Assembly: GCA_043381765.1 (NCBI GenBank)
Contig: JBHJMP010000889.1
Span: 1-35,449 of the forward strand
Length of the DNA stretch: 35,449 nt
Direction of reading: 5' to 3'
Source: Collodictyon triciliatum
Taxonomy: Eukaryota
Positions 6,654-35,449 of the stretch are shown here, piece after piece. Both the position numbers and the translations under genes were made by a program. The notes under the pieces were generated by a model. The model was given only the letters and a program-made list of their open reading frames with translations, was not told the DNA's origin and did not search any database. Numbering within the stretch: the stretch's first letter is position 1; each line of letters opens with the position of its first letter.

Positions 6654-9447
6654 ATGACGACCGAGGCACTGTCAACCGCAATTCTCGTTGACTCGCCAAC
6701 AGTAAGCCCCAGAGAGCTTTCTTTCCCTCAGCACTTTCTTTTATCTATCTTTCTCTTTTCCAAACTCTGCTTTCCTCTATGAAGGCACAAGTGGTTTTAT
6801 TTCCAGCTCGTTTCTTTTCAGGGCGAAGAGAACGAAAACTTTGAGTCGTCTCGGCAGATAAGGTCCCCTATCGAGACACTGTGGTGGAAATACTATCTCT
6901 ATGCAAGCCATTTTCTTTCGTCTTGGGTTTGTCTCCCTTTTGTCTCCCTTTTGTCTCCCTTTTGTCCTTTCTTCCTTCTTTTTTTCCCCTTTATTCGATT
7001 CAAAGCGTCCTTTCTTCCTTCTTATTTTTGGTTTGTTTCTTGGGTTTAAATGTAAAATATCAATACTCATAGTTTTTTTATGGATATTACTAGAGTAAGC
7101 ATACACCACATTGCTTCTTTACCAGATGTTGTGTAAATAGAACTCACCTGGCGTACTTCTAGGGTGACAGAATGTGGCAATTCTGCGCAGCTATTTTGCT
7201 ATTACGTCTTTCTCCTGACTCTTTACTCTTGGTCTCCGTGTATGGATTGGCTCAGACGTTTTCTGTTTTCGTATCTGGTCCAAGTATCGGCAAATGGGTT
7301 GATTCAGCTGACAGATTATACGGTAGAGTAATCTTTATTTATATTTTACATATGGATAATATGTTGGTCATCCTATTTTCTTTCTCCTCTAGGATTTGTC
7401 TTGTTTCTCATCTCACATAAGTATTGAACAATAGCTCTTATACTGTACATCTTTATTGATTTTTTGAAATAGGCGCAAGAATAAGCTTGATAATACAAAA
7501 CATGAGCGTTGCTACATCTGCATTCTTATTGACTTTACTACTGGTAGTCGACTTGAAAGAGGTTCTTGTTTGATTTTCATTTTTTTATTCATATATGGTT
7601 AGACCTATGGAACAGGTGCACATTTTTAACCATGCGGAAACAATATAAATAACCATATCCAAAATTTTCTGATGTAAAACTAAAATAATAATAAAAAAAC
7701 CCAACAAAATGATACAAAAATGTTTAATTAATTGTAAATTATTATATGTCTGAAGTGGATCTACAGTGTATGCGTGGCTCTTGTTATTGCACTTGGAATG
7801 ATTTCGGATATGTCGAGTATGTCCAGGTCGATTATCGTAGGAAACGATTGGGTCATAACAATCACAGGAACCAACAAAGATCTATTGACAGGTATGTTGC
7901 CGTAATGCATATATATTGCATATAGACACCTTATTTCCTAAAAATATTAACAAGGTATGATTAAAGTAATAAAGCAATCCACTTTCCAACATTCCTACCA
8001 TCTTGCACAATATTGAAAGGAAGAATAAAATAAAAAGCAAGTCACTTTCTAATTTAGTATTCCTTTACAGCCACCGTACCAGTGACTGCTTGAAAGTTTA
8101 TCCAATCGTAAAACTGATCATTTTCATACCTAGAACTGAATTCTATGATGAGAAGAATAGATTTGGTATGTAAACTGGCTGCTCCGTTACTATCAGGGGT
8201 AATACTGGCATACAAATCGTCCACAACGAGCTGTATTTACATTTTCTCATGGAATGTGGTCTCTGGAATACCTGAATACTACCTTTTAAAGAGGTAAATA
8301 GTTAATCCTGACATGATTAGATTGTCGTGAATGTTAAGAAATGAGATGCACAATCCTCATCAAATTTTTCAACCTTTTTCAGAGTCCCACCATCTCGCAT
8401 AAAATTGAAAGGAAGAATAAAAATAACAAAAAAAAAACTTTTTCTTTTTAGGGTATATGAGGCACAGCCATCCCTGAAAGAACCAAAGCGCCAATCGATG
8501 GAGACAAAGTCACCCTTAAACTTTTACTCAGTCTGGAAATCCACGATTGAGGGATTTAGGTATTCCGTTCCTACATAAAAATTGGCATTCCAAATTAGAG
8601 TGAATAATTTATGATATATTTCCCATTTATGAAATTCTGATGTCTAAGTGACGGCCAGGAAATCAGTAGTTCTCACATCTATTTAATACTTGTGCAAAGG
8701 ACTTACAACAAACAAAGATGCTTTCTGGCATATACATCGTTGGCAATTCTATACTTTACAGTCCTGTCTTTCGGATATGTGATGACAGCATATGTATATT
8801 GGACTGGTATGAGTGAGGACTATATCGCAGTATGCCGGGGTATCGCTGCTTTTATGGGAGTAATTGGGACATATGTGTACCCTTTCATGAGGAAAAGATA
8901 TGGGCTCAGTAAAACAGCTCTTTTCTCTATCTGGTCGCAGTTGTCGATGCTGGGGATCGCTTTAGCATCGGTGTTTGTGAACGATTCCTTCGTAGCAGTC
9001 AATTTACTAATGTTTGGCGTTATCTTATCGCGTGTTGGCTTGTGGACTTTTGATCTATCTGTGACGCAAATTGTTCAGGTTTTTCTTAATTTTTTTCTAT
9101 CTGGGCATCTTTTTTTCTTCTTCAAAATCACTACTCCTCTCATCCCAATAGATTCATATATTGAAAAAAAACTTCATTTTATTTTATTTTTTTTAAAAAA
9201 GGAATCGGTCCCAGTGAACATTCAAGGTGTGGTGAATGGTACCCATCGCTCCATTTCAAATCTGTTAGATATGCTTGCATATGTTCTTTCCATAGCATTC
9301 TCTGACCCCAAAAGTTTCGGAGTCTTAAATGCGATATCTTTTGCCTCGGTAAGCTTTGCAGCTGGGATGTACACAGCACACTACATTAAGCACTCCAAAC
9401 CTTTTTCCAAGGACACAGAATTAAGCAAAATATCGCCCAGCGAATAA
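6654..9447 (+). CDS. SLC40A1: Ferroportin (SLC40A1/IREG-like) metal exporter, 9 exons
   Basis: Exons 6654-6701, 6822-6926, 7163-7322, 7473-7561, 7756-7891, 8134-8293, 8452-8559, 8700-9078, 9202-9447 join in phase. Family motifs: YLYASHFLSSW|GDRMWQF, GPSIGKWVDSADRL, LIIQNMSV, ELNSMMRRIDLVCKLAAP, SLAILYFTVLSFG, SRVGLWTFDLSVTQIVQ|ESVP...GVVNG. Confidence 0.93.
6931..6963. repeat. (GTCTCCCTTTT)3 just after a ferroportin splice donor
   Basis: Three exact 11-mers at the start of intron 6927-7162. Confidence 0.85.
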
Positions 9448-9471
9448 AGAAATACATATCAATTTTTTTTT

Positions 9472-9899
9472 NNNNNNNNNNNNNNNNNNNNNNNNNNNNN
9501 NNNNNNNNNNNNNNNNNNNNNNNNNNNNNNNNNNNNNNNNNNNNNNNNNNNNNNNNNNNNNNNNNNNNNNNNNNNNNNNNNNNNNNNNNNNNNNNNNNNN
9601 NNNNNNNNNNNNNNNNNNNNNNNNNNNNNNNNNNNNNNNNNNNNNNNNNNNNNNNNNNNNNNNNNNNNNNNNNNNNNNNNNNNNNNNNNNNNNNNNNNNN
9701 NNNNNNNNNNNNNNNNNNNNNNNNNNNNNNNNNNNNNNNNNNNNNNNNNNNNNNNNNNNNNNNNNNNNNNNNNNNNNNNNNNNNNNNNNNNNNNNNNNNN
9801 NNNNNNNNNNNNNNNNNNNNNNNNNNNNNNNNNNNNNNNNNNNNNNNNNNNNNNNNNNNNNNNNNNNNNNNNNNNNNNNNNNNNNNNNNNNNNNNNNNN
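9472..9899. other. Assembly gap (N run)
   Basis: N run; hides the ferroportin 3' UTR and the start of gene 3. Confidence 1.
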
Positions 9900-12800
9900 G
9901 AAGTTGAAGTCCACAAGGCACAAGCATTGGGATAAAAAGAAATATTTTTTTCAATTGAAATCGTAACGTGCGCCAAGCAAATTTAATCAAACAACAGACG
10001 AAGGCCGTCAGGGTAATAAAATATGTTTCTTAATAATCTCGTATCATACGTGAATGATTGTAGACCCAGTTTAAAAACATAATGGGACATATAAATATTT
10101 TCCATTATTAGATAATAATCGAATATTATTTGCTTTATTCCAAATATAGAAATTTCTTATATTTTTTCCTGCGGCGGTCTGCATTGGGCGAGGCTTGGGA
10201 TAAGTCTGCGAACCCGTCAGAAATCTGCTTGCGAGGCCGCGTTTGTTTTCCTTCTTCCTTTTTCCTTTTTCCTTTGTCCATTTTCCTTTGTCCATTTTCC
10301 TTAGTCGATTTTCCTTTGTCCATTTTCCTTAGTCGATTTTCCTTTGTCCTTTGTCCTTTGTCCTTTGTCCTTTGTCCTTTGTCCTTTGTCCTTTGTCCTT
10401 TTTCCTTTTTCCTTTCTCCTTTTTCCTTTTTCCTTTCCTTTGTCGATTTTCATTTTTCCTTTGTCCTTTGTCCTTTGTCCTTTTTCCTTTCCTTTGTCGA
10501 TTTTCATTTGTCCTTTGTCCTTTGTCCTTTGTCCTTTGTCCTTTTTCCTTTCCTTTGTCGATTTTCATTTGTCCTTTGTCCTTTGTCATTTGTCCTTTGT
10601 CCTTTTTCCTTTTCCTTTCTTTTTTTTTAATCTACTGCAATCACCCGAAAGTATCCTACCAGAAGCAGGCCAACATCAAGAGAGTGAACAAATATTTGAT
10701 CCATTTATTTCATCGCTGGGGTCGTATTATCCTTTGATATGGACAAGAGAATGTGAGGCTCATCTCCCCTTCGCCTAACACGAAATATAGACAAGCTGTT
10801 TATTTGAATACCAATCTCACTATAATCCTAACAATATCCAAATCATTCTGAAGAACGAAATGAAGTTTATCGGACGAGTCTATCTGCAGATATGCGAAAC
10901 CCTCCGGGTGGATTTGGAAGCGCAATCAGATGGTTTCTCCATTCTTTCCTTACTATGTCAACTTACTATATACAATTCACTCATTAAATTAACTCAATAT
11001 AATCCAATTACATGCCTAATAGCACATGTTTAATATTTCAAATTATCAATAATTAACCTTTTCGTGTGCAGCGCACTTCGTATTCGATGTGACTCTCCGT
11101 TGCCAAGAGGGTTCAAGCCCTATCGCAAAGTTTATTGAGTCGCCTCTGAGTGGGCCAGAAAGGACACAAAATAAGGAGTGCTTCATGTATGACTGCTAAC
11201 CATAATACTATTTTTTTTAATTCAGTGTTAGTGTGAACTCATGGAGTGATTGAAAATTCTAAATATCATTAAATCAATTAAATGCGTTCTCACTTCACTT
11301 TTTATGAAACAAATTCCGATTTCTTTTCCTTGGTCGACAGAGACATTTCAAACAAGGGGTGCTGGATTGAGATTTCCATGTCAAGAATCAGTCATTTAAG
11401 ATTGGTGGGTTCACTATCATACTCAGATAAAAGAATAATGAAAGGCTTTCTTTCTCATACATTTTTATTTAAAATTTACTTTAGATAATTATAAAACAAC
11501 AGCAACAGTGTATTTCAATATCAACGTACTTTTATCCGGCTAATAGGAAGCAACTGCATCTAAATATATCATTAAATGGGAGAGATTTTCCAAGTCAAAT
11601 CACTTGAGCGACATGTATATAGACGAAGAGCATTCAGCTTATGTGTCGAATGAAACGACTCTACTGGCTAAATTACTTTACATATCTTTTGTATGATTCT
11701 TACGGATATTATTTTATACAAACTAACTGAAAATGTGTTTTTTTTTTTAACTAAATGATTCATCCCGTGCATTTACAGGATAACATAAGCGAGGAAATTT
11801 ACGACGATTATCTTAATTTTGTTCAGGTATTTCAATTCGAAAAGTATCAATATATGTCAGTGCAATCAGAATAATTCTCAAAAGAAAATAATCAGCCACA
11901 ATCGTAATATTTGACGAGATTTGGGAGAGAAAAGAAAACTGACATATATAACTTAATGAAAATTCTGCTTCTAGTATCTCACCAAAGGAAATCAAAAGCT
12001 TTTTTCGGCTCTTTGTACTGCAGCCAGAGATTCGAAATACTTGTTTGCGACACCTATATCAGAATTATTTCCAGATGCAGAGGATTCATTAATCCTTGTC
12101 CAAATACTGACGAATGAAATTTTTCAAAGCAAGTGTATCACTTCTATTTGAACATCCCAATATCTAATTCATCTTTTGATGGTAACCTAACGCCGTATGA
12201 TTCTCAAATTCACACTTATAAAAACGCAGCATCAAAGCAGGCAGAGTCATTTGCATATGATTCAGTGGAAAAAGAAATCCTTCGTCTTCACATCTCTGTA
12301 CAATATTTAGCATAATTTGGACGAGTCTGGATATCTTTTCTTTATTATCATACANNNNNNNNNNNNNNNNNNNNNNNNNNNNNNNNNNNNNNNNNNNNNN
12401 NNNNNNNNNNNNNNNNNNNNNNNNNNNNNNNNNNNNNNNNNNNNNNNNNNNNNNNNNNNNNNNNNNNNNNNNNNNNNNNNNNNNNNNNNNNNNNNNNNNN
12501 NNNNNNNNNNNNNNNNNNNNNNNNNNNNNNNNNNNNNNNNNNNNNNNNNNNNNNNNNNNNNNNNNNNNNNNNNNNNNNNNNNNNNNNNNNNNNNNNNNNN
12601 NNNNNNNNNNNNNNNNNNNNNNNNNNNNNNNNNNNNNNNNNNNNNNNNNNNNNNNNNNNNNNNNNNNNNNNNNNNNNNNNNNNNNNNNNNNNNNNNNNNN
12701 NNNNNNNNNNNNNNNNNNNNNNNNNNNNNNNNNNNNNNNNTTTCGTTATGTATATGCGGTCTTTAGATTCATGATTTGATTTCTCATGATGAGACAAGCA

Positions 12801-15335: not shown

Positions 15336-18300
15336 TTACGCGTAGTAAAACTCATCCTCTTCCTCAATCAACTGGTCCGTGTCGATGTCAAAACACGTTG
15401 TTATCGCTTGTAGTAGTCGCTCTCGCAAAATGTTTTCACTAGAATAATCAGGTAACTCCACTGCGAAAAAGCACGTCTGTGCGCGTGGGAAGTCGGAATC
15501 CGGGCTATCCACAACCAGTTTCCCCAGTTTCATTTTGTCCTAGAATCAATCATTCAATCAATAGTTGATCTGTAAAAATCTAATAGCTTATGTGTAAGTG
15601 ATTCTTTCTTTTGAGGAATTACAAGTATAGCCAATAATGGATTCCTCTTTTTATGGCAACATGACCCGATAAGTGTGTCAGTTATATTCAAATGAAAAAA
15701 AAAAAGGGACAAGAATATATCAGAAAGGATGTTTCCTCCCTGTCGACTTCTATTCGAGATTGCAAAGGTGTTTCGTCAGGAATTACCTGTTGCCGAAACT
15801 CAGCCGCAGAAGGCAAGCGCTCCCGACCGGATGCAAACCTTAAGAACAGTTTGCGCTGTTTTTGGTTGAAGCCCTCCAATACATTCCAAAAGTATGAGAC
15901 AATCGGTTCGGTTGGTGAAATATTCTCTCGGTAACGTGTGTGCATCTAGCATGGCAAAAAGTGTGAATATTTTGAGATTCTCGTCCGAGAGATATGAAAT
16001 ATGAAATATGAAATATGAAATATGAAATGAGAAATGAGAAATGAGAAATGAGAAATGAGAAATGAGAAATGAGAAATGAGAAATGAGAAATGAGAAATGA
16101 GAAATGAGAAATGAGAAATGAGAAAGGAGAAATGAGAAAGGAGATATGAGAAAGGAGAAATGAGAAAGGAGAAAGGAGAAAGCAGAAAGGAGAAAGCAGA
16201 AAGGAGAAAGCAGAAAGGAGAAAGCAGAAAGGAAAAGGAAAAGAAATACCTTGAGCAAAGAAAGGTCGACATCTGAATGGCCACACACGCGCAAGGCGAG
16301 TTGTTGCCAGGTAAATAGAGGAAGCAAGCATTCAGGTATGATTGTCGACATTCCCTTACGAATGGCTTTCATTTGCAAAGAACTCTCCTGGAGTCGAACC
16401 TGCTCCACTAGTCTGCAATACTCCCCACGGTTGTCAAATCTAATAAACGAGAAACTTTTTTTAATAATAGTATTTCAAAGATGATATCAATTTGGTGACA
16501 AAAGACAAGAATTCGAGTATTAAAAGAAAAAGAAAGAAAAAGAAAGAAAAAGAAAAAGAAAGAAAAAGAAAGAAAAAGAAAGAAAAAGAAAAAGAAAAAG
16601 AAAAAGAAAGAAAAAGAAAAAGAAAAAGAAAAATGAATGGATGAATGGATGAATGGATTTAACCATTTATTAATTTAATTCGCCGTTCTGGAATACCATA
16701 ATGGCCACTAAACATCGACGTGATTATTGATATCTTATGTGCCACTTACGTGACATCGATGTGTGCTCCGTTTGGCATGAGAGGAACGACAGAGCCATCA
16801 CTTCTTGCAGTGGTGAAGGTTTCAAATATCATATTTGAAAATTGATCTCTATCCATGCCTTTCCTCTCTATTGCATGAAGAATTTCATTCAGCACATTAA
16901 TGAGAATTATCAATAGAGGATGTCCTAGAGGTTTGAGAGGGGAAAAGGAAAAAGAAAAAAGAAACCTATATTGCGTATGCTGTCTAGATACTGCCAACAA
17001 AAGCGGTCTATATCCTTGATATCTTTTGCATCCAGAGGAAGGCCAACCTTGAAGTGAACAGATATCGATCGTTCGGTTTATTACAGGAAAGTAGATTTCA
17101 CGGCATGTTGTAAAAGAGTAAAATACCAAAGGTTTCCAGACGAAGGGTGGAAAATCCAAGGGCAGAGGATTCCTCTTCGTTTCCAACAAACATTAAGTAA
17201 CATTAATTAAATAGATCAAAAATAGTTTAAAAATGAGTAGTCATGTATAAATAAAATGCCAAAAGCTGATTCATCAATCATCTTTGTGGTGATTTCTTAA
17301 AAGAAAAATAATAAGGATAGTGTATGCATGATGCATATATACCGTTCGCATGGCTATTCCCATCAACTTTCCAACAAACTCATACATGGACATATGTATG
17401 GGAGTGGTGGATGCTGGTCGTGGAATGTATTTGTCTCTGTTCTCACCAATACCAATTTCTAAACATGTCCAGAGGGTTTGATGTAATGTATGATTATTTC
17501 TCCCGCAATAACATTTCTTTAATCCATATATTTTGAATCATAAAAGGGATAATGGAAAACTAAAGTCGATTTTTTTTTAAAAAAAAATTAATAATAATGA
17601 AGCTGTATGACTGGCAAGACAAACCTTCTCGTGCAAGTTTGGCGTTGGGGCACAGTATGAACAACGGCAACAAGGATGATTGTAACTCTTCACAAATCCA
17701 TGTAATAGTTTCTCTATACGGTCCTCCAATATCTTGCGCCCCCTCACCCTCCATTTTAACTGTCCATGATTGGTCGTCTTGTCTTAAATACGAAGGGTCG
17801 ATATCATGCAACTGGTGGAATATTTGGACGAAAACACACCACGGAATATCTCCGTCTGGACCTGGTTGTAAATCAATTTAGAGGCTGTTATTTTATTATT
17901 TATTATATATTTACAGATTCATGAAGCAATTATTATCCTTTGTCAAAAAGAAAAAAAAACTATACTATTCGGCGTTTCCGTTGCCTGCTGTCGATTGATT
18001 ATAACGGTAGGTCTTGCGTCCGATGGCATCGTTTTCATCAGTTTATTGAATAACTCCATTTTGGTACTTTGGTTACATAGAAAAAAATTGTAATGATTTT
18101 TTACTGTGACTTTATTAGAGACTAATATATTAAATTACTTTCTGTGCCGTAATTTTTTTTAGATGATTAATAATATCATATTTATACAATTGCTATTCCA
18201 TACCTGTAGAATATAAGTCCTCTAAGCTCGCAGATGCAAAACGATAATGACCCACTTTCGACAGCGTAGCTGAAATCGACGATGGGGAGTATCGGTGCGA

Positions 18301-21300
18301 GAATGTAGTTGAATAATCGAAGGATGGAAAATCTCAATTTCAGTGATTCAGGGGGCACATTATGCAGCAAGGGATAAACCATTCTGTCAGTCTCTGTCAG
18401 TTCAATATCTGGAGGTGTTAATATCAACGGGTTTGTTCCTCTATCCTCGCACATAGAGTCCACATAGTTGACCAACTGCTCGTCCATGGATAATGTCCAT
18501 TGAACTCTACGTAAACAAAATGTTACAAAATAAATTGGGTTATGAAATAAATGCGACTGACATGACAAAAATAATACGCTATACAATACATACTTTGAGA
18601 TTGCTAGGTCGATTAAATCCTTTTCAGATGCGAATAACCTTGCTTTGTAATCCTGTGTAAACTCAGGAACAACAGAGAATCTAAAGCCCCATTCAGAACC
18701 TAAGAAAAAATTACTTCATTTTTCTGTTTTTGGTTGTTGATATTTTTTTCCAAAAGGAAAAAGAAGCAGAAAAAACCAAGAAAACCCAAGAAAAAAGAGA
18801 GCAAAAAACGTAAAATGTTGTGATCCGTTTAAATAATAAAAGCTACATCTTCGAGAATGAACCATATTGTTAACACCTACCATGAATCCCATCGAATTTG
18901 AAAGAAAATGAATCTCCATCTAGGGAGAATATTCGGAAGTGGCTTTCTTCGAACTATGGATTAGTTGAATTAGGTTATTATTATGTTTTTTTTTTTTTTG
19001 CTTTTTTGTTGTTTTTTTTGCTTTTTTGTTTTGTTTTTTCTTGGAACTTAATATTAAACAATACCATGAAAAATAATACATATAATGTAATTTTAGTGAA
19101 TGATTAAAATTACAAAACATAGCAAAAGAAATAAAACCTTTCCAAAAAATTGTCCCAAATCTTCGTATTCGGTATCCTCTCTAAAGAAAACCAATCTGTC
19201 ATGAGGGTGGGTCGACGACCGGCAATCAAGTATGACCAACAGAGATTTAGCGTTGGGAATGCTGACGGTTCCCTCCGTACTGAAACGGTGGTATGGATGA
19301 GGACTCTCTTGCACAACAACTTCTTTAGTCTCTAACCATGCTTCGCATAAGAACGTGTCAGGTAATCCCTTTCGCTGCAAGAAGCATTCCACGATGTGAG
19401 TTACTTCGAATATTATATCAAACCACGAGCGACTTGAGCCGTTATCAGGGTCATCTTTGTCTCCAGCGATATCTGATAAGCTAGTAATAGAGTGTTCGGA
19501 TGATATTGGGCGCATGTTCCCATCCGCACTTGGCGCCCGAAAAGAAACAGGCTTACTTCGCTCTGCATGTAACTGGGAATGTACTTGGCCAGAATGAGTC
19601 TGATTTGTCGGTGATGTCACAATCCCAGGGTCGATGTCACGCTCGAGCCAATTAAATCTGACAGCACCGAGTATGAACTCGACAAGAGACTTGAGATATA
19701 GGCCTTCTTCCTCGCTCCAAAGCAAAGGGAGAGTAGAGCCTTCAGCTGCATGTGAGCCTCTTTTATACATATCGGCCATCTCCTGTCTTACCCGCTGCAA
19801 GAGCTCAAGGTTGGGCTGGATGACATCAGAGGTATTTGAAAAGAGTTTCAATGCATGAGCAGACAAAAATTATCAAGGATAGACAAAATGAATCTAGTAA
19901 TAAAAATGAATGATTGAAAGTAAAATAAAAAGACAAAAAATTTCAATGGAAAATCTCACGGTTCTTGGAATGGACATATTTCGAGTGTGATGCATGATTA
20001 TAATCATCATTCTGATGATTTTTGTTTTTGCCGTGTCAGAAGGCTGAGACTCAACGTTTTGCAGGAGCATATCAATAATATCTGGGAGCCTATTTAACAC
20101 CTCAGCTTGTTCTCCATCCTATGAATTTGCATTTATTTTATTAAAAGATCTCACATGTATATTTCAAGATTATAGTGAACATAAACTCCTACCAAAGGTA
20201 AGAATGAAGCGTGGGTCAGATACATACCTTGCAAACAAGATCAAGAATCCAAGATGCTAAATCGAATGAAGGTTCAGAACTGAATATGTTTTCTCTGTGT
20301 TGTGTGTTGGGCATGGCTGGTGTAGAGGAAAGCCAAAACCCAGAGGAAATGCACAGATTGATAAGGTATCGAGTAATAATGGCTCTGTCAGATGGTTCAT
20401 TGCGAAGAGTACTTGTTAATTTACTACGCAACTGAGACATAACAGGGCCCTGTAATGGTAGATTGTGGAGATTGATAGATTTCATCTCTGGGACAATGTC
20501 ATCTGCGAAAGCTGGCAAAAAAGCTCGCTCGATTGTCGCCAATTTTAACAAACTGAATAGTTTCTCGTGACCACCAAATAAGCTTAGCGAAAATCGGCAC
20601 CCGTCTGGCCATCTCGATAGGATAGAAAGTAGTGTACGACATGCGTGTGTGGCCAAAAGACATGATGAAACAGACGCCAAACTATGAACAATATCAATAG
20701 GCCCAAGTATAGATATATCCCCATAAAAATCATTCATCCCAGTTACGGGACGAGTAAGTAACGTTGAGTACCAACTTGTAGATTTTACCCCTGTTTCAGG
20801 ATTATAATGCTGCAAAAGAGCCATCTGCGAGTCAAGGTCCACTCCTTTCAAAACACACATCTTTTCGTTCTTTTCCGAATTTGAGTCCATGTTTGCAAGT
20901 AGATCAGAATTTGTAGTAACAGAAACGAGCATCATAGGACATATATCTAAAGAGGAAAACAAGGCGCCATTAACGCTGTTTGTGGATTCTGTTGGTTGTA
21001 TTTCCGGGATTGCAACATCCATGCTATCTTCCCCGTTTCCCAAAAATCGACGGAGTGCGCTTTCCTCATCATATCGCATATTTTCTACGACATCATCTCT
21101 TGAAGTAGATGTGACTGGAAGTGAAACTGAACCCTGTAGATGATCAATTGTATTCTTAGTGACAGTGTTTGAACAGTACTGATTGATAGTATAATACAGT
21201 AAATTTTATGTTTTTTTTTTGTTACGTAAGTATAAAATACGTACGCTATTGAAAATGAAAATAGAAAAGCACTTGAATAGACTTTACAAAAATTGGGTAT

Positions 21301-24300
21301 GTAATTACTTAGTTCTATAAATTTCGACTAATTATGGGTTACATACAGGTCGCTTTGAAGTTGCTGGCGTTGTTGGTTTTTCAGTTGTATCACTAATTAT
21401 CATTCCCCTAAGCTTATCGATGAAATTAAATTTAAAGTGAAACTGTCCAAAATTTGCAATCACACGTGACCCCCGGCTGCTCATAGAAATATATGGGTAG
21501 CATATCCCATTCACATTCTTGAAAGCTTGGCCAATGTTGACCCCATTTTTTGTAAAGTACACACTCCCATCTGAATTATTCCAACCACAACCTACAATAT
21601 CGCCCGTCCTGAACGAGGGTCCGAAGACATCACCAGCGCCCCCTTTAGATTTCCCTCTCCATTTCCTCCCAGTATCCTGATAGACACATACATCATCATC
21701 AAAGTCACCAACGTGGGTGTCTCCATACGTTAAGCCGTACTCGATACCTCCTGTCGACCGGCCCTTGCTCTCTATGTAAATTTCATAATAGTACCCAGGT
21801 ATTTGCGATGGAATGGGGCGATTTGTACGAGCCCAGCCTCTGTCATCACTGGAGCGACCTGCATATAATACTGTGCGAGAATCATCCCCCGATATTTCTA
21901 CATAGAATGAGTGAAGTCGATCGAATGATGTCGGGTATTGAAGAGGCAAACGCGCAAGCGGGGAGCAAGGAATAATATCTTGCCACAATCGGTCGCTGAA
22001 ATCAGAACACTTTTCTTGCATCCTAGTCATCCTGCAGTGTGATTAAAACAACTTTAGTTCATATAATATGATTTCCAAAGAATAGGGTTAGAATGAATTA
22101 TAGAAGAAAACATAACATTATTTATGACATTAACGAGCTATATTATCAAGATAGGAAAATAAATAGATGCAGACGTTCGTTCCAGGTCATCAGAGTTTTT
22201 TAAATGTTTAGTATTGGTAACTTTAAGAGCTGTTTCTGATAAAATTGACATGGCTCCACTTTCCAAGAAGAAGGTCATCGATTCAGGATTTTCTAGTAAC
22301 GCGCTGAGACTCTTGAAGCCTCTCCCTGTTAATCGAACTTAGTGAAAAAAAAAATAATTTTTTTTGCGAAGTATTTAATGATAAAAAAAAAAAAAATCGT
22401 TGAGTATATGTATAAAAAAAACACAAAAAAACACAAAAAAACACAAAAAAAACACAAAAAAAAACACAAAAAAACACAAAAAAACACAAAAAAACACAAA
22501 AAACACAAAAAAACACACAAAAAAACACAAAAAAGAAACAAACAAAAAAAGGAATCGTTGACAATTCTTAAATATAAAAAATACATTTTATTTGCGCAGC
22601 CCCTATATTCATCGTTCGAAACGGTACGCATTCTTCGCTTTTCGTACTGGACTTCATAATTTTGATGTATGCGTCAAGTATGTGCTCGTTGAGTTTGAAG
22701 GTTGATGAGTCGAAAGCTGCTTCGGGCACGGGTATCACTTTTTCCACGTCGAAGGATGAAATCACCCCTGAATCCAATAACACTTGTAATTTGCCAGTGG
22801 AGTTCTCACATATTACTATACGAGTAAATGGAAGTATTGTTAATACTAGAGGTGTATATGTCTATAACAGTACCGAATATGTAATATATAACGCCGTCGT
22901 CCTGGAAAGAGAGTTAACACACACCAAAACATACAGGAAGCTGCTTGGTAAGATACTTGTTTGTTTGTTTGTTTGTTTGTTTGTTTGTTTGTTTGTTTGT
23001 TTGTTTGTTTGTTTGTTTGTTTGTTTGTTTGTTTGTTTGTTTGTTTGTTGGTGTGTTTTAATGAAAAAAAAGTACCTATAGTCCCATTCTCTGTTTTGTC
23101 TTTTTCAACCCGAACCTCAACCTGGCCTCCTACTCGAATACCGTCTGTGTGGCCCCCTAAAACACACAGAGCAGAAACTTCTCGACTTGCGTCCATCGAC
23201 TTCTCCCCTTCGGCTGACATCAATACACTTGGTATGTTGGATACATACTTGGAGAGTTTTTCATTCAAAATCTAGATAATTCGAGTCAGACTGAAGTGTC
23301 GGCGAGGATCAATCTTTCAACAATTTAGGGATATGCTTTGAATCGAATAAAGGGAAAAAACAATTTAGGGATATAATATTAATTTATTTATTTGTTTAGA
23401 ATAGGAAGCATACTTTTGCAGTGCCTTTGAAGCCCATCATCTTCCGAAGCAACATGATGCATTCATCAGCAAAACATCGATTAACAAATCCACTTCTCGA
23501 TCTAACAAGATTTGGTATTGATGAAGTTGAATCCCAGCCACGGGTACTGGTTCCACGAGATTTTTGAGGTTTTCTTCCCTTTCCACGGAGACGGGCAGCT
23601 GGTGCATGAGGAATGCGACCTTGTTGTATGGAATTCATAAAAACATCTGATGTATTACTACCGTCACTATGTATTGCTGAATTTAATGCTTCACTGGAAG
23701 ATGGATATGAACTCAGCGACACACTTTCTACTTCGGGTGATTGATAGGCTGAATTTGAAGGGGGTATTTTTCGAATTTGTAAGGTCATTTGAAGATTTGA
23801 TATTGATTCCAATATTTCAAATGAAATCATTTTGTTCATATTCTCAACTGATTCTGGAAGACTTTCAGGCCTACGAACAAAGAACCGTCCTGCTAGTAAA
23901 AGGAGAGCATCCACAATACTAGGTATACCCTCCTCAAAAACGATGGAACTAGGACCGATGGGCAGCTCAAATCTTGAAGGAATTAGAGTGGATATATACT
24001 CTTGACTAAATAGGTATCGGAATATTCGAAAAACTATTCTCTGAATTCGGAGCGAAGACACCATAAGGAGAGTTAGCAAGGTAATGAACATTTTTCTGGT
24101 TATTATATGCTGTAATGGTTTGTTTTGGCAAAGGTTGAGAACTATCGAAAGAATGTCGGATAAAGTGGCTTCGACATCATCGAAATTTTCAATTCCATCT
24201 AACTTCACTGGTGTTTCTCCATAGAGGTGCGTAGACAGAACAGACATGGAGTTTGATTCTCCTTGTTGCTGAGAGACAGATGGGAAAAATTTCATAATCA

Positions 24301-27300
24301 TAGATGAGTAGTGTTGAATCAGTCCTGCGAGCGTCTCCAAGCAATTTTGTTGTGTATCAGTGAGCTGACTTAACTCAAGCAAAGGGAAGTCAGTATGGAC
24401 GTTTAATATGGAGTGTATTGCTGATTTAAAAGCAAGAATACACGCATTTTTAAATTGAGCTTTTGACAATTTCTCTTCTTCAGTTGAGAGATTACGATTA
24501 ACTTCTACCGGTACATTGGTTGAAATAATAATTTTTTTGAGAGTCTCCAGTGAATTTCCCTTGAGAATGACATGGTGGTCTTTTGAAGAAAATCCGATGG
24601 AGAACAATCCGAGTAGAATAGATTTTGTATAGTCATCAGTCTATTATTATTTTTGCAGATGTTATAGGTATTTACTTTACATGTATAGAATTTAGCAATA
24701 GTTTTTTTCTTTTTTTTATAGAATATAGCAATAGTATTGGATTATCCTCTTTTTTTTAGAAAAAAAAGGATAATAAGATAACCTCTTTGTTGGAAAAAAA
24801 TGTCATCATAACCAAAAAAAGCGAACAAAAGGACTCTCGAACCCCTTGAATAATAATTGGACTACATCCCTATGGTATTCACACTTAATAATATATCAAA
24901 TACTTTACCACCTACGTGAAATAGAATTTACAGTTAATATAAAGTAGCATTTTGAGTAGCTCATACGTGAATATCATCCAGATACGATCCTTGTATCCCG
25001 TTTTTTGGTGCAAAAGCAGCAATCACAGAGCGAATTATGTCTTGCTTTACAGACAAGATTTTAATGGACTCTAATAGTTTCTGACATCTTTCCATCCCTT
25101 GAGCTCTATTAATGGCCCTGTTATTCTGTATATCTAGACATGCTCTTATGTCCTCAGCTAATAAAATTGATAAAATTATGTTGTTGTCTTTCAAAAAAAA
25201 AAAAAAAGAAGAAGTGAGATATGGTGATTCATTCATTTTCAATCAAGAATGGAGAAAACGAATAAATTGAAATGAATAAATATATAATGTATAAAAAATA
25301 GAAGAATCGTCCTCTCTTTATGAATTAAAAATAATAAGGAGGATAACGTCATCTCTTGCGTTCAATATATATGATGTGGTGTATATAAAGGGAACTTACT
25401 TGAGTTTGTCTCTTGAGATGTCATAAAATTAAGTACAGAATCGCTTACAACGTTGAATAAGTCGTCAGTATCTAGATGTGAGGCTTTGATATTCATCTCG
25501 GTTGAATTTGATATCTTGCTACTTTTCTCATCCCCATTCACTAAATTCTTTGAATGGAAACCTGCAGATTCACAAGTAGAATTGCAAGTAGAAATAAAAT
25601 ATGTTTTCGTATTAGCATTTACAAAAAAAAATTAAAAAGATAAATATACTTAAGTAGGGAGAAAAAAACATAGTCCATCAAATTTTGATCGGTTGTATTA
25701 TGAATCATGCATCTGTTTCGCTTAAAAAAAACCTTCCAACTTTACGTTTGCATGAGTCCCATTCACTACACCAGACAGGCTGCAAGCCGTAAATGATAAT
25801 AGAAATTTTGCCTTCATCACAATCTGATCAGATAAATCAGAGTATGTGATTTTGTCAGAGTTTAGTTGGTGTTGTTGTACAAGCCATATGCGAATTTTTC
25901 CAGCTTTCGACCATGCTCTTTCTATCTCAGGTGGCGGTGTCAATTCATCGCTCATTATTGTCTTGGACCCTGCCCGAAACCCTGATATTGTGATTTGCTG
26001 AGCGTAAAGAGATGCTTCTCCAGTTAGTCCAGTGTGGTGAATAAGTACTGCTGCCACAGCCCTTTCAGCACGTTCCATATCCTCGTTAGACAATGTACTC
26101 AAAGGAACTCTATTGGATGATTGCTGGAGCATCCATAAGCCAAACCTATGATATAATTAGAGTTGCTTCATTAAAAGGTTTCCATTCACCATGCATATAT
26201 GAACAGAGGATTCTGCACTGAATCACATATGAACTATGGATGAAATCAGACTGTGCGCCAGATGAGCCTGGTGTGCCTATTAACAATTCCATAGGGAAAC
26301 TTGACGTTGATAAGGGACTATCGGCTCCACCTTGCAGAGGAGGCGACTGCATCCACTTTTTTAGAACGACTTCTCGGTCATCAACAGGTACACCTGACAT
26401 CATCGACTTGAGGTATCTTCCTATCAATATTGAGGCTGTCTTTTCCAAGTCAAAGAGCCAAGGAAACTAAAAATTTTGTGAAAATTAAACTGTGTTCTTT
26501 TCTATTTCTCAAAGCTTTACATTTTTCGATATATATAATGGGTAAATTGAATTGCTTTTGTTTCGATTGAGAATGCATAAATGATTGATTCGAAAACCTG
26601 GTCAACAAGTTTCTGTCTGGATTGAATAGGCTTTGAGACTGAATATAAAGAGTTCATATACTCTCTCTTCAGGTAATTGTCTTCAGCCTTTATTACTAGC
26701 TCGGAAAGAGAGTTCTGATTATCTAAAACTAATGTGCGGCAAGGGGTTGCGAAGGGAAGGGGAAGAAAAAGCGAATTTTAGACATTTTCGTGCAAAAAAA
26801 AAAATACGATAACAAAGTAATGTGACGGAATAAGTAGACTATAGTTGTGATTTACCAATCAAAAAATCCTGTAAATTATCTATCAGATTGGATGATAGCA
26901 ACTGCTGGCTCGGGAAGCTGCATAGAGACGTTATGATAGAAGGCAATAATATTCCAATAATCTAGGAAGGGTTTGTTCAATTATGAATTCATTTAAAGCC
27001 GTTTCTATTAGGGATATTATACAACCAAATCTACTTGTCTATGATTTTATACAATAATATAAGAGAAAAAAAGGAAGTAGAAAATACAGAGGAGTATTCT
27101 GCATCCTTAGGGTCGAAAGGTACTCCAAGACTATAATAATTGTACAGTGTTTAAGTTTCTAATCACCTCATCTACTGCGAGAAAAAAAAACATGACATAG
27201 ATTATTTTTAGGGTGGAAATGTATTTGGTCAAGATACCACTCAGATCTATTTTGTTTGATGAGATAACAAGTTTTTTCGAGTAGACATTTTGAAAAGCTA

Positions 27301-30300
27301 ATGAATATGTGTGTCGGCTTCTCGAGAGTATCTTTTTCTTTGCTTGTAAATCCACATATCCTATTAAGATAATTTTGTGAGTGGCCATTGACTCTCCATC
27401 ATGATGTAAGGAGCAGTCCATATCGGAGAATATAAACCACAGATATTTTAATACCGAAGCAAATCGTTTCTTAAAGCAACTAGTAATCGCAAGGAGCAGG
27501 ACTTCTTCAACCAAGCAGAATAAGAATTTGTGGAGACATCCTGTCAGTATAATCAATTAATAGAAGTGTCTTTGTATATACAAAGAGGATGGAAAAAAAA
27601 AAGTTAAAAATATGAATTATTCGTTCAGGCGATGGTAGTATAGAGTAATGATTTTGAAATAAGGACAAGGTTTATATTACGTTAGGACTTCCGTAAGAAG
27701 CAACTTCAAGGTTAAGTCGATTCAGCAAGGCATTTACTAAATACATATTCGACCTTTGTATTGTGCAATAGATAAGTTAGCATGTCTAGTCGAGTTTGGG
27801 GAGTATGAGGTTGAGCGGGACGAATTTGGAAAAAAAAAAATTGAGTTCACACCGAAAATTAAAAGGGAAACTACCCAATTCTACAAAAATATTACTCATT
27901 TTTATCCGAAAGAAGTCTGGACGGGTCCGACGATGCTGATATGCTGTCCAGAATGGAGCAAATCAGTATATTTTTAGCGGAGCACGGTCGAGATGATCTG
28001 CATATTGGTTATAGTTGTCATGAATTGTGATAAAAGGGCACTTATTTGCATAAACAATCTCACATTTTCCATAGGATACATAGAATGGTTCAAGGGCATT
28101 ATTACGTCTCTTTCAAAAGACCCATTATGCAGGCCAGCTGCTGGTCAGGAGATGGGTAAAATATTGTAAACCCTACAGTCAGCAACTCACATACTTCCCA
28201 TTGAATTTGCTGTATGTAAAGCGACTCTGGTGAAAGGGGGCCCGTGCGACTTCTGTATCGCAATTTATGGTAAGTTACACGAAACACCCTCTATCAGGCG
28301 GAGCTATGCAATATTTTATGTTACAAGGTATATACTTTGCCGCTGGTCCATCAACCATTCGCAGGAACAATTGAAGCATTTTGGAACGGATTGAGCGATC
28401 TGCTGCATGCAATAAAAAAAATTTATGGAAACTGAATGTTGAAATATCATGACAAGATAATTACAAATCAAGTTAATTTAATGTGAGCCGGTATGCACCT
28501 TGGCCATCCTGGGGTGAGCTTATACACAATCCGACGTTTGCCGGTGGTGTCTTTGATCGAATAAGGAAGTATATGTTGGCTACAATATATAATCGATGAT
28601 AAAAGAAAAATAGACGCTTTGTAACAGGAGATGAACAGAAAAAACGTTGTTTTCATAGTAATGAAAAATAAATCTATAAATGTAATGCGCGCATATTGCA
28701 TATGGATTAAAATATATGGAAAAATCTGAAGTTTGATGATGGTATGTGATAAAAAAAAAAGGAGCGATTTCTTTTAATCATTTTATGGGTTTTTTTTGGT
28801 TTTTTTTTTGGTTTTTTTTGGTTTTTTTTTGGTTTTTTTTGGTTTTTTTTTGGTTTTTTTTTGGTTTTTTGTGGTTTTTTTTGGTTTTTTTTGGTTTTTG
28901 AAAAGATTACCTTTCAATATACGGATGGTAGCTAAAATGACGTAAGCAATTGATAGAGTTAATTGGGGTGACAACCCATTTCTGCTTGGGATAGGTGAAG
29001 GTGGAGTGGCCATAGCAAGCTGTGCCCTTTTTGAAGCTGGAGATGCTGATGCAGTTGCCCTTACAGTCCCAAAAAAATGATGTTTGTAGTTGTCGATAAC
29101 AGAGTATAGGACCTGAAAGGTTTTTGAATCCAGCTGTACGTAAAGCGAAGGAGACATTTCCGGTGTTGGGGTACTACAAAACAGTATTTCAAAAAGGATT
29201 GGTGGCAAATGTAAAGATGGGAATTTAGGTATGGAAGATAAATATGAGTACAGCAGCGGCTCACATATTTGTCGTGTGGATTTGTGTCCAGGATGAGAGT
29301 CTGAGAGGAGATGGCAGCAATGGGTAGCAATCATAGAAATTCCTTCTGGTCGATTTATCGATGTTTGCTAATAGCGTTATTGCGGCATGCTCGCTGCTAC
29401 TAGGTTTTTCAGTTTCGGTTGAACTGTATTCTGGTAAGGACAATATTATTTCCGGCATCATGATGATTTGAATGGCCGTGTAGTCTAATTAAATGATGTT
29501 AGAAGAGGAAATTAGGAGGGTTCTGGTTGCATACATTGATTCAGGCCCATCAAAAACTTCTGAGAAGTATATGGTTAAAAAAAGAAGAAAAAAAAAGGGA
29601 GCGATTTAAGGGTAAACATGGCTGATATATTGATGTTAATAAAAATTCACCTAGATAGGTATCAGGAACAAGCGCATCCTTAATTAGTCGACCATCGTTA
29701 AGTCCATAAACCCTAACGAATATATAATTTGGGCGAGGACAAATTTTCGTGGGGTATTTTACAACCTATGGTGATTATCAAGTTTAGCCAATGGCGTGTG
29801 GTTGCTGCATTTATATTGTGCCGATAGAGGAAAATTGATAAAAATATCCATTAGAAAGAAAGTTCACCAAAAAGTGTCCATTCGTCATGAATACACACTC
29901 ATTCAGCCAAGGGTTTACTCCCGTCATTTCTGATGCTAAGACATATGTTACAAAGTAAGGGAATTGGATATGAGCCAACATTTTGATTGTGTAGTGACGC
30001 AGTTTCTTTTTGCTTCTAAGGTGACTTCACTACTATAATTAACATAAAGAGTTATTTGATATTCTGTAGATGGATGCAAATATACCTTGTTTATTCAATG
30101 CGTAGTCAACATATCTAAGTTCGTCAAATGACAAATTTTCGTATGCAGGCATCGCGGTTATCGACACTATAGACTCTGATGATGTGGGTGTTTCCTGACC
30201 CTAGAATATGAAATGTCATATTTAATGGGTGACATAGAAATTCTGACGGTATACGATTACTAGATGAAAGTAAATCATTTGATTGTAGGAACTATACATT

Positions 30301-32938
30301 TCTATTTGATGAGTAATGCACTATGTATACTCTCTAAATGTATCTCCAAATAGGATAAAGGGAGACCTGTGGTACCGGTGCATATTTTTCAACCATGGAA
30401 CCAAGGGGATAGCGAGCTGAGTGTGTTTAGAGTCTTTACTATAAAAATCGGGGCAGAAGAGGAATGAGCCATTACAGGAGTAAAATTAAAGGTTGTATTT
30501 ACATTCAAAAGGAGTGCCGATAATTTGGAATAGTGCATCTTTGCATGGATGCACACCAGGCTTATTCTTTCTTTGGCACATGTAACAAACTTCAAAGTAC
30601 TTGCAAGTCGTGCACTATGTTAAAAGCAATCGAACTTAAATTTTTTGAATTATGATTTCGAATGATATAAAAAGAGAATCGCTTGAATGTACCTTAAATG
30701 AAGCAATATTTGTTCGACATAAATGGCAAAGTGAAGTATGCACTGTTGAATCTCCTTTGAGAGTTATTGTCTTTATATGATTCAGTGATTCGCTCGGGTC
30801 GTAAATACTTATAGAAACGCTCATCTAGACGTAATTTAGATAAGTGGTTGCACTTGCGCAAAAATTGAGACGCAGACTTATTACATATATATCTTGGAAA
30901 AATGGCGTACGTGATTATTGTATTGTGTAGTATAGATGTATCGCCCATCTGAAAATATGGGAGACCTAAACCAAAAATTAAGCATTATTAGGGACAAATG
31001 TACTCGAATCAATATACTGCTAGCTGAGGGGAAATAACATAAAAAATATATGTGAACAAATAAGTAGAGGATATATGTAAGTACGCTTTCCGCTTCGATT
31101 CATTCAGAATCTTCTTGTTCGAATCGATGAAGGTATTATTCGGGAGTTCCTCAAAACAGCATTCTTCCTAGTAAACATATACATGCATGAATTTGACCTA
31201 TCTACATATTTTGTTCATGAAATAATCTATACAAAGATTAGAAGGAAAAATGGCAGTGTAAGGATAAAACAGGCAATAATGATTTCTTTCTCTTCATGAA
31301 TAATATGGTACCTCCAGCGAGTCTGGTAAGAAGCAATGAAGAAGTGTGGGATTTTTTTCTGACCTAGTGTAAATTCGGTCGCGCGCATATGCAATCCAAG
31401 ACAGTTGGTCAAGAAACGGATATGATTTCGTCAAAATGACCGTATTCATAGTCTTCCAACAAATAATAATAGTAATAAGTAAATGATAGTAATAAAAATT
31501 CACATGAGTTGTTCAGATTAACATTAGTACAATACAGGAAGGCTATGTAGCGATGAAGGGTATATATAATTGTTATCATCATTCAAATGAAAATAAAATA
31601 GCTGTTACCGTGGAATAAAATCCAGTAGTGAGTTTAAATATTGAAGAATTATGTACAATATAGATATATGTACCTAAAATAAAAAAGTTAAGTATATTTC
31701 CCTTTTCCATATTGATTTATTACCTCTAGTTAGATTTTCACCACTTAAAATTCTTTTGTTCGGCTTATATATTGTAATATATGGCGCGGTAATCGGATTA
31801 GGTTTTCAATCTTAAATTACCATCAAATGCAAATGACTGAAGCTTTGCATAGTCTACAAGAGAGTTTCCGCTTTGTGCTCCACATATAATTTCTCCCGTT
31901 ACGACACCTGCAACGACAGCAGGTAATATATTATATCTTTGAATTGTGGTTTTTGTTTTATTTTTCTGAAGTGTAATGCCTTTGTTTTTTGTTTTTTGTT
32001 TTTTGTTTTTTGTTTTTTGTTTTTTGTTTTTTGTTTTTTGATTTTTGATTTTTGATTTTTGATTTTTGATTTTTGATTTTTGATTTTTGATTTTTGATTT
32101 TTGATTTTTGATTTTTGATTTTTGATTTTTGATTTTTTTTCTAGTTAAGTGTATAAAAATACGCGAGAGTCTGGGTCATTAATGAATAATAGACTATGAG
32201 AGAAGGGGACTGCATGTTCATCATATCGAATCACATATCTATGGTTTTTAGATTGATTGCAATAAGTAAATGCACGTAAATATTACCCAAGCGAGCCCGA
32301 AATAACGAGTTTTGGAGAAATGTGTCGTGTGTATGGTCTGCTAGCATACTAATTTCGGTATTCATTGATACTGGAAAATTCTCCACTCCGGTTGGTGATA
32401 AGAGTGATTTGATACACTGAAATGAACAGGAAAAATTCAGATATCATCATTATCACGCAAACGTGTTGATTCAGTAAACAGTAAAAAAAAAAAAATGTTT
32501 CTTTTAAAAAAAAATCCACAAATAATTGCAATACTATAATCATGTCGTGAAGAGACGAGCGGGCGATGGCAAGTCCTGTTAGTATTCGCAACACAAGGTG
32601 CCTGTGGGTTAATTTCGAGGTGTCTTGGCTCGACGTAGCCGGGAGCTTAGTGGAAGAAAATCATCACTTCATACTCATAGACCCACATTAAATGAAATAA
32701 ATCAACGAAGCTTTAGTCAATTATTCTAAGGACCATATGTTCGAAGTTGGTTAAAAAATGAAAAGAAAAAGCACAGCGTGTGAAAACTCTTCTAATTCAA
32801 TATATAGTGTAGTATTACCAGAGACATGACCCACTCCCGTAGCGGATTCACCCATTCGCTGGGTTCTTTTTTCAAATATGAAGGGTAGTGAGCAGCGATT
32901 GCGTCGGATAGTAGGTTTAAGCATTCGGTGCAGATTTC

Positions 32939-33035
<97 letters not shown>

Positions 33036-35198
33036 GTGAATTAAATCAAAATAAAGTAAAAGTAAAAATAAAATAAAAAAGATAAATTATATGGAGTTTT
33101 CTTTTTGAATCCATACATATTTTACTTTTCAGATAACCCCGAAGGGTCACTCTATACATATTTTATATTGTTCATAAACAAAAATGGTCCATCAATTCTC
33201 TGTGAGGGAAGAGAGAGTACCTATGCTTCCTTGACATATCGACTTTACCAACGGGACGAATATTTGATTACAAAGCTTTGCTATAGTTTCCGGAGACTTT
33301 GTGGCATCGGATGTGGTGTCTATGAATTTGGATGAGGCTGCTGTGCTCATAAAAGACATCTAAAAAACCGGATAACATATTAGCAGGGGGGTTTTCCATT
33401 ATGACAAACTATAAAAATAAAAATAAAATGCCACAAAAAATAGTAATGTTCTTGCTTATATCTTGATAGTGGGTCATTAAATACCAAGATTCCTGTTCCT
33501 ATTCCAATTATTGATGTAAGTGCTACTGTGGCGTTTGAAACAGATGCGATAGATTGAAGCCATGCTTGGTGGCTACCAGACTGATTACCCGTATTCGCCA
33601 TTAACTATATTAATTAGATATATTTTTAAAGAATATTTTACTTTGATATTTATTTGATAACTCATTTGTAATTCCTTGTATTCATAGTGTGATTCATTCG
33701 GACTTCGTAGCTATGTTTTTGGACCGCACCTAATGTGGGTTTATGAAAAAGATATCTACGCTCCGCAATAAATGATTAGAATATATACAAACCTGCAACC
33801 ACGATTTCAATTCATGTACCAATCCACCAGGGAGAGCCAAATTCGGTAACTCGTTCAAGCAAGATGCTATGTTCTAGTTCACAAAGATGCATACCGTGTT
33901 ATGTAACCAAAATGCTTATCTCTGAGACTATAGAAAAGTTTGTATAATTTTGTGTATTCTTCGACATTTGAATCGAATGAATTATTGATATATCAACTGA
34001 TAGAAAATCGAATAGAATGAGTACTTGGAGAGCCTCTGTGATAAGGTTGGGTTCCAACCGATTCACATATTTTATTATGGGGAGGAATACCCTTAAACAG
34101 ACTGCAGCGACAAACGGGATAGGTGGGTGATTGTCCGTTGCATTTCCCGAGATAGTTTTAAAAAGTGGGTCTGACTCCTGATACAAGATGGTAGGAATTA
34201 TACATGAGGAATTTAACAACGTTTCGTTTGTGGTGAATCATTTGATTAAGAGAATGTAAATGGAGATATTTTGGGAATTATTCATCGCAAGCGGAAATTG
34301 CACCTTAAAAGATCCGTATCTTTCTACAAACAGCTGTAAAGAGCGCCCTATTGCCTGCTGTGACCTGCATAACAATTGCAACCGTTGCTCCAGTACAAAT
34401 CCAAAACTGCTTGTCATTGGAGTGTAGTTTCTTAAATCGCTAATGTATCTCCTTTGAACAGCCTCTTGAAGCTTAAGAGAGTGGGCTGCTAATAAGAACG
34501 AAGAGTCTGGTACTTCCTGTGTCAAAATTTTCCTTGGTTTTGATGAAAAGAAATCGACCAAAGCATTTTTTTGATTGGGCCTATGGGAAAATAATTTTCA
34601 TGAACAATTATTAAGTTCTAATGCTTAAATAAAAAAAATAAGTCAGTAATATTAAATAATGTATATTCATATAATATGAGCTTGCCTCGCATATGGAAAA
34701 GAGGAAATGAATAAGTTAAGGACGATAGATTCACCTTTCGCTGGTATCGGTGGCTATCTCTGTGAGTGAAGATGTCTCCATAAATATCACATCTTCGCCC
34801 AGTTTTAGCCATTCAGCGTCCTCCAGGTCCTCGAGTTCTCTGTCCAACCTTGCAATTTCTGCCGCTAGTTCGTGGGATGGTCGATGAGAATGAAGAAATG
34901 CTTCCAGAGCGGATGGGATTTGTCCGTCCTTGGATAGAAGCGCTGCCAGACTTCTCCGATGGATCTGAATCTGAAGAATACGCTGTTTTGTTCGGTGTGT
35001 TTCTCCATAGAGTCCTGGGATGGATAAAGCTTCGCTCATCGCATCTATGGCATATTGGCGCGGATCTGCGAGTAGCTGCATCACATAGTCCAGTGAGCGG
35101 AGGTAGTCGGGTGCCCGCAAGTTTCGGATTCCAGGGATTGTGGAGAATGAAGAGGCTGGCGAGGGATTTTCAACACTGGCATAATCGATGTGGCTCAT
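15336..35198 (-). CDS. Giant HECT-type E3 ubiquitin ligase (HERC1/HERC2/HECTD4-like scaffold; no RCC1 repeats seen), ~57 exons
   Basis: I traced a continuous in-phase GT-AG exon chain from [10 protein letters not shown] (ATG 35198) to TAA at 15336; a few acceptors have alternatives. C-terminal HECT motifs: [86 protein letters not shown] (catalytic Cys). HERC-like segments: [58 protein letters not shown]. The start is tentative: a pyrimidine tract plus AG upstream could mean further 5' exons outside the window. Confidence 0.92.
15990..16245. repeat. Compound heptamer repeat (GAAATAT)n-(GAAATGA)n-(GAAAGGA/GAAAGCA)n in a HECT intron
   Basis: Directly visible; fills most of the intron at ~15946-16249. 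Confidence 0.95.
16522..16632. repeat. Purine tract (AAAAAGAAAG)n / (AAAAAG)n in a HECT intron
   Basis: Directly visible. Confidence 0.9.
18630..19320 (-). other. CUB-like module of the HECT ligase
   Basis: VQESPHPY...[27 protein letters not shown]...[10 protein letters not shown]...[11 protein letters not shown] across three exons; matches my recall of the ESxHPY...WGF module in ZZEF1/HECTD4-type proteins. Confidence 0.7.
21420..21900 (-). other. SPRY domain of the HECT ligase
   Basis: [19 protein letters not shown]...[16 protein letters not shown]...[14 protein letters not shown]...YPYISM...[10 protein letters not shown] is a RanBP9/HERC1-type SPRY pattern. Confidence 0.9.
22412..22550. 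repeat. (CACAAAAAAA)n imperfect intronic repeat
   Basis: Directly visible. Confidence 0.9.
22957..23049. repeat. (TTTG)n intronic microsatellite
   Basis: Directly visible. Confidence 0.95.
28788..28900. repeat. (GGTTTTTTT[T])n intronic repeat
   Basis: Directly visible, next to the minus-strand donor at ~28910. Confidence 0.9.
30086..30416 (-). other. GLEBS-like (Rae1/Gle2-binding) motif encoded by exons 30416-30367 and 30200-30086
   Basis: Spliced translation [54 protein letters not shown], compared from memory with Nup98 CITAMKEYESKSLEELRLEDY. Confidence 0.8.
30540..30728 (-). other. ZZ-type zinc finger-like motif split by an intron
   Basis: [36 protein letters not shown]: CxxC...FKCxxCxxFEVCxxC...H pattern; exons 30824-30693 and 30614-30503. 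Confidence 0.7.
31981..32140. repeat. Compound heptamer (GTTTTTT)n then (GATTTTT)n intronic repeat
   Basis: Directly visible; abrupt switch of unit near 32040. Confidence 0.95.
32940..33033. repeat. (AAT)~31 microsatellite abutting a splice acceptor
   Basis: Minus strand reads (ATT)n-AG directly before the exon starting at 32937. Confidence 0.95.
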
Positions 35199-35348: not shown

Positions 35349-35449
35349 TGGTTTTTATGGTTTTTATGGTTTTTATGGTTTTTATGGTTTTTATGGTTTT
35401 TATGGTTTTTATGGTTTTTATGGTTTTTATGGTTTTTATGGTTTTTATG
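35349..35449. repeat. (GGTTTTTAT)n nonamer repeat, truncated by window end
   Basis: Directly visible. Confidence 0.95.

Follow-up and report, generated by a model that had tools for sequence, protein, structure and literature searches.

The window analysed here is the whole of a 35,449-nucleotide (nt) stretch of DNA from Collodictyon triciliatum (assembly GCA_043381765.1, contig JBHJMP010000889.1, forward-strand positions 1 to 35,449). Its minus strand is predicted to carry a gene of about 20 kb for a HECT ubiquitin ligase with some 3,900 amino acids (aa). A preliminary description of the sequence had placed two small exons in this gene, here called micro-exon 1 and exon 2, and had read them as a GLEBS motif, the short segment by which the nucleoporins Nup98 and Nup116 bind the WD40 protein Rae1/Gle2. 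We find that this interpretation is partly supported. The core of the motif is recognisable in exon 2 and both exons are spliced into RNA, while the first half of the motif is not detected.

The exons around the motif, listed in the direction of the gene and in window coordinates, are as follows.

30693..30793, minus strand: first half of a Cys-rich finger; RNA reaches the contig end at 30793 and the gene model extends the exon to 30824
30503..30614, minus strand: second half of the Cys-rich, ZZ-like finger; RNA-supported exon directly upstream of the motif
30367..30416, minus strand: micro-exon 1, 50 nt with 16 full codons, bridging the zinc-finger exon and the GLEBS core exon; junctions in runs X1 and X2
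30086..30200, minus strand: exon 2 with the GLEBS-like core, 115 nt with 38 full codons; X1 and X2 junctions, Pfam family PF21240 and Nup98 chains of the PDB
30102..30164, minus strand: GLEBS-aligned part of exon 2, 21 residues (13-33) against profile positions 19-39
29868-29935, 29651-29765, 29265-29484 and 28911-29173, minus strand: four downstream exons with RNA junctions; the next exon begins at 28579

The exon borders come from four public runs (X1 to X4), chosen among those that match 28700-31000 and aligned to window positions 28900-31950. Two of them, X1 and X2, belong to the same study (P1), are labelled as different organisms and are flagged only as 'RNA?' in the record. Their contigs have, at the loose ends, what we take to be SMART cDNA primer sequence. 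Because of these primer-like ends and the exact removal of introns, we regard the contigs as cDNA. The other two, X3 and X4, are freshwater metatranscriptomes (study P2) that cover only 28911-29105 and are uninformative on the motif exons. The loose end of X4 at 28911 matches 28550-28579 with one mismatch, which gives a further junction, 28911|28579.

One contig each of X1 and X2 (two of the four runs) joins all three junctions of the small exons, 30503|30416, 30367|30200 and 30086|29935. These contigs lack the genomic stretches 30417-30502, 30201-30366 and 29936-30085, which are cleanly removed as introns, and every skipped part reads CT..AC on the plus strand, that is GT..AG on the gene strand. 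Both exons lie on the minus strand exactly where the preliminary description had put them, with the GT-AG borders and the phase it had given. Micro-exon 1 begins in phase 2 and exon 2 on a codon, and each keeps the phase of the exons next to it. All eight RNA-supported exons from 30793 to 28902 have AG/GT borders, after the stated shifts of the alignment cuts, and the chain stays open in a single frame over about 350 codons.

Both small exons are present in the two contigs that cover them and look constitutive. The contigs are blind to rare isoforms, so occasional skipping may occur. RNA contigs cover only 28902-30793 and 31087-31453, and missing cover outside these ranges is not evidence of absence.

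The X2 contig retains the 78-nt minus-strand intron 30615-30692 and stops at precisely the first base of that intron, 30692, where primer-like letters follow. Within this intron, X2 has four listed differences from the window and one inserted base; its exons have about two real differences in about 620 nt. It may represent an unspliced molecule or a splicing intermediate, derived from a strain that differs slightly.

The 38-residue peptide of exon 2 matches Pfam PF21240, Nup98_GLEBS, with an E-value (E) of 3e-5 and 24.4 bits, and this is its sole family at E<=1. Pfam scans were made with 36 window peptides, which represent part of the model exons, at E limits of 1, 10, 0.1 and 0.01; exon 2 is the only one of the 36 to match Nup98_GLEBS. 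Against the chain sequences of the PDB at E<=10, eight of its nine matches are Nup98 GLEBS chains, the best being 9hcj_U0 (E 0.0089) and 3mmy_B (E 0.011). The ninth is an unrelated receptor at E 0.62. The ESM Atlas was uninformative on exon 2.

Identities counted from the alignments are 13/26 with human Nup98 (3mmy_B) and 15/33 with the Nup98-Nup96 chain 9hcj_U0. The core shared with the Nup98 GLEBS consists of I-T-A-M, Y-E, S, acidic-E-L-R and D-Y. A D-E pair lies opposite the E-E of 3mmy_B, the position that contacts Rae1, so the proposed change of EE to DE is borne out and is conservative at its first residue. In human Nup98, these residues (E201/E202) are described as conserved and as forming functionally crucial salt bridges with R216 and R172 of Rae1 (PMC3783196). 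Given the Pfam E-value and the eight Nup98 chains among the nine matches, the resemblance is more than chance. It is thus confirmed, at the level of sequence, that exon 2 holds a real GLEBS-like motif in a new host protein.

The host was modelled with an exon-chain finder based on dynamic programming, which scores codon log-odds against intron composition, requires GT-AG borders, keeps account of phase and is self-trained. Of the eight known introns downstream of its anchor, it recovered seven. The upstream run, started at the ATG (35198), also placed the ninth known intron, 31168-31311. A cruder first version skipped known small exons and was discarded. The model is approximate: the finder always yields a chain, and some micro-exons and repeat-encoded stretches are doubtful. 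The gene and its recognisable domains are as follows.

15336..35198, minus strand: modelled gene of about 57 exons, most of them without RNA support; its product has about 3,913 aa, and the GLEBS core falls near residue 846
21347..22030, minus strand: SPRY exon of the RanBP9/10 type, Pfam SPRY E 2.9e-12
15339..17456, minus strand: HECT domain in five exons, Pfam PF00632, collinear with profile positions 21-300 of 306
17343-17456, minus strand: HECT piece 1, profile 21-52, weak at E 0.048
16752-17174, minus strand: HECT piece 2, profile 56-135, weak at E 0.21
16250-16438, minus strand: HECT piece 3, profile 137-199, E 7e-10
15748-15945, minus strand: HECT piece 4, profile 202-247, E 1.9e-10
15339-15539, minus strand: HECT piece 5, profile 257-300, E 8.7e-10, includes the catalytic Cys

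In the modelled protein, the predicted domain order is an N-terminal region, a ZZ-like zinc finger, the GLEBS-like motif, a long unannotated region, a RanBP9/10-type SPRY domain, another long unannotated region and the HECT domain. The core of the motif is placed in a Pro/Ser/Thr-rich linker directly after the zinc finger. The finger is encoded by the two RNA-supported exons upstream of the motif and has three C-x2-C pairs followed by H-x-C, a spacing read by eye. From this spacing it appears ZZ-like; neither of its exon-split halves matches Pfam when scanned alone. The SPRY exon is nearest to RanBP10 (5jia_A, E 2.6e-21) and RanBP9 (E 8.4e-21) among solved chains.

The HECT domain is complete. 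Its C-lobe exon aligns with the catalytic loop of E6AP, the closest among solved chains, and retains the catalytic Cys. In that exon (15339-15539, minus strand), the loop reads Q-T-C-F-F, compared with H-T-C-F-N in E6AP. The open frame continues about 30 residues past the usual HECT end, with an acidic tail.

The preliminary description had held that the host is no nucleoporin, and this stands. Across the 3,913 aa of the modelled protein there are 7 FG dipeptides, where 8.6 are expected, and neither GLFG nor FxFG occurs, so it is not an FG nucleoporin. The other claim of that description, a giant HECT host, holds in part: a SPRY domain and a complete HECT domain do lie downstream on the same strand, but their link to the motif in one transcript is made by the gene model only. 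By that model, the GLEBS exons and the HECT exons probably belong to a single transcript.

The best explanation of these observations, to which we give a probability of about 50%, is that in a giant HECT ligase the motif may serve to dock a Rae1/Gle2-type WD40 propeller. Several results weigh against it. At 24.4 bits, exon 2 alone falls 2.6 bits under the curated PF21240 cutoff of 27, and the alignment takes in just the C-terminal half of the profile, positions 19-39 of 39. Its first acidic residue is Asp instead of Glu. The exon-1 peptide, in a 20-residue stop-free reading, has no Pfam or PDB match at E<=10, a length (16-20 residues) that gives such searches little power. Nor does the exon-2 alignment reach profile positions 1-18, despite 12 further upstream residues being available. 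The upstream GLEBS strand that had been read in exon 1 is thus not recovered, and the N-terminal arm of the GLEBS hairpin, the first half of a motif of about 57 residues, is not detectable.

No relatives of the gene came up in the collections searched. A phmmer search with a 414-aa exon against 1.84 billion representatives gave no match at E<=0.001. Word-index searches with the 414-aa, 87-aa and 226-aa exons gave none among targets of up to 2,070 residues, a size that leaves giant orthologues out of reach. Scans of metagenome contigs with the 414-aa exon and with a 53-aa open reading frame holding exon 2 were likewise empty. Finally, no RNA contig joins the motif exons to the HECT exons, and that link comes from the gene model.

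Most of these points would also fit a resemblance that has no present function. The motif might be what is left of a captured nucleoporin exon in decay, or it might have arisen by convergence in a flexible linker, with no WD40 partner in either case. The score under the Pfam threshold, the half-matched profile, the lack of similarity in exon 1 and the lack of relatives, and hence of conservation evidence, all favour this. On the other side, an E-value of 3e-5 is improbable by chance for a 38-residue peptide, nearly all of the most conserved core positions are kept, the acidic pair included, and both covering contigs include both small exons. We consider a functionless motif rather unlikely. 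If the motif does function, the main functional rival to Rae1 is its paralogue Bub3, the spindle-checkpoint WD40 propeller, and the ligase would then be tied to kinetochore or checkpoint turnover. The S-F-acidic-E-L-R stretch of the exon-2 core is presumably typical also of Bub1 and BubR1 motifs. The GLEBS motifs of Bub1, BubR1, Mad3 and BuGZ, which bind Bub3, are of the same kind, and the Bub1-type complex with Bub3 is described as structurally close to that of Rae1 with the Nup98 GLEBS (PMC3779320). Chains of Bub1, BubR1 and BuGZ are, however, absent from the nine PDB matches of exon 2, and the best matches are all Nup98. The Pfam family of Bub3-binding motifs, Mad3_BUB1_II (which we take to be PF08171), also has no match to exon 2 at E<=1, where only the Nup98-type family is found. 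Binding to Bub3 rather than Rae1 is accordingly improbable.

A different objection concerns the host and not the partner. The exons of the ZZ-like finger and the motif could form a separate upstream gene, with the HECT ligase as its neighbour on the same strand. The narrow RNA cover, and a finder that is forced to give one chain, leave room for two genes. Yet from 35198 to 15336 the minus strand is densely filled with coding-like open reading frames, and every step between them is a frame-consistent GT-AG intron. Since no gap between modelled exons exceeds 331 nt, there is little room for an intergenic region, and the recovery of the known introns speaks for the chain as modelled. We regard two genes as very improbable.

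We return to docking of a Rae1-type propeller, whose binding, and its effect, we infer from the sequence. As the Nup98 GLEBS does, the short linear motif would lie across the top face of a seven-bladed Rae1/Gle2-type propeller, with its D-E pair making salt bridges to the conserved arginines. In this way Rae1 would become a stable partner of the ligase, be it as adaptor, localiser or substrate, and the ligase and Nup98 would be in competition for Rae1.

A fuller scenario is more tentative, and we would sooner doubt it than assert it. A giant HECT ligase may have captured the Rae1-docking motif of Nup98 on two micro-exons. With it, the ligase may occupy Rae1 and so compete with Nup98, either at the nuclear pore or on export-competent messenger ribonucleoprotein particles. 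This would couple HECT ubiquitination directly to mRNA export or spindle control. Alongside the PHR proteins, which are of the RING type, the protein would then be a second, independently invented giant ligase that holds Rae1, and its architecture would be the first to unite GLEBS and HECT.

The likeness to Nup98 and Nup116 lies in the core sequence and in the acidic pair at the salt-bridge position. The differences are the host, a SPRY-HECT ligase without FG repeats, the lack of a recognisable N-terminal hairpin arm and the change of the first Glu to Asp. A GLEBS motif outside the nucleoporins and the checkpoint kinases is reported for BuGZ, which is also reported to be a substrate of the HECT ligase Ubr5 (PMC4602037). 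As far as our searches go, GLEBS motifs are known in nucleoporins, checkpoint kinases and BuGZ. No GLEBS-HECT fusion appeared in full-text literature searches, as judged from listings and abstracts and without supplementary files.

The Rae1-binding motif of the PHR proteins is not known to be a GLEBS. These ligases (MYCBP2/Phr1, Highwire and RPM-1) are reviewed as binding RAE-1 by way of a dedicated domain that contains a small conserved motif (PMC4806438). They resemble the present protein, for which the Rae1 link is predicted, as giant ubiquitin ligases that hold Rae1 by a small motif. In contrast to it, they are of the RING type, with RCC1-like and PHR domains; no RING-H2, PHR or RCC1-like domain was reported among the 36 peptides scanned. 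What is new is thus a known docking motif in a new host, while the pairing of a ligase with Rae1 is not new in principle.

Giant HECT ligases with similar accessories include HERC1, which has a SPRY domain, and HERC2, which has a ZZ finger. The present gene shares with them the large size, the C-terminal HECT domain and the SPRY (HERC1) or candidate ZZ (HERC2) element. It differs in that the scanned peptides hold no RCC1-like domain, its SPRY is closest to RanBP9/10 and its HECT C-lobe is closest to E6AP. Orthology is not established.

One further exon of the gene, of 226 aa (19138-19815, minus strand), has an unnamed eukaryotic cluster of the ESM Atlas as its nearest (score 0.94, 209/256 features shared, 153 members). 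Ciliophora is the commonest phylum among the 12 members for which it is known. The recognition value of 1669 is under the 2300 mark and the cluster is a lead only. The same exon found nothing in Pfam, the PDB or the word-index search.

Many short tandem repeats with periods of 3-21 are present, at 15989-16230, 16522-16633, 22414-22550, 22957-23058, 28781-28899, 31981-32137, 32939-33079 and 35349-35449, mostly within modelled introns of the HECT gene. The window closes with a perfect 9-nt repeat of 11 copies, which lies upstream of the gene start. Several of the tandem repeats are open in frame and mislead exon calling from open reading frames.

The plus strand holds other genes. An open reading frame at 8641-9447 codes for a ferroportin's C-terminal half (Pfam FPN1, E 7.5e-50, profile 251-430 of 430), so that a neighbouring gene is taken as an iron exporter. 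At 4062-6152, a 696-aa open frame with abundant Lys and Glu and a long, perfect (Ser-Gln)n run matches no Pfam family at E<=0.01. Two runs of N, at about 9470-9900 and 12350-12740, are assembly gaps in this plus-strand gene region and appear as runs of X in the translations.

In summary, we show that a GLEBS-like core of the Nup98 type is spliced into RNA from a gene that is modelled as a giant SPRY-HECT ligase, where it may dock a Rae1-type propeller. If this is true, the Rae1/Bub3 docking module would be portable between very different machines. Ubiquitination would also be tied physically and directly to mRNA export or to chromosome segregation, in a lineage of eukaryotes that is poorly sampled.

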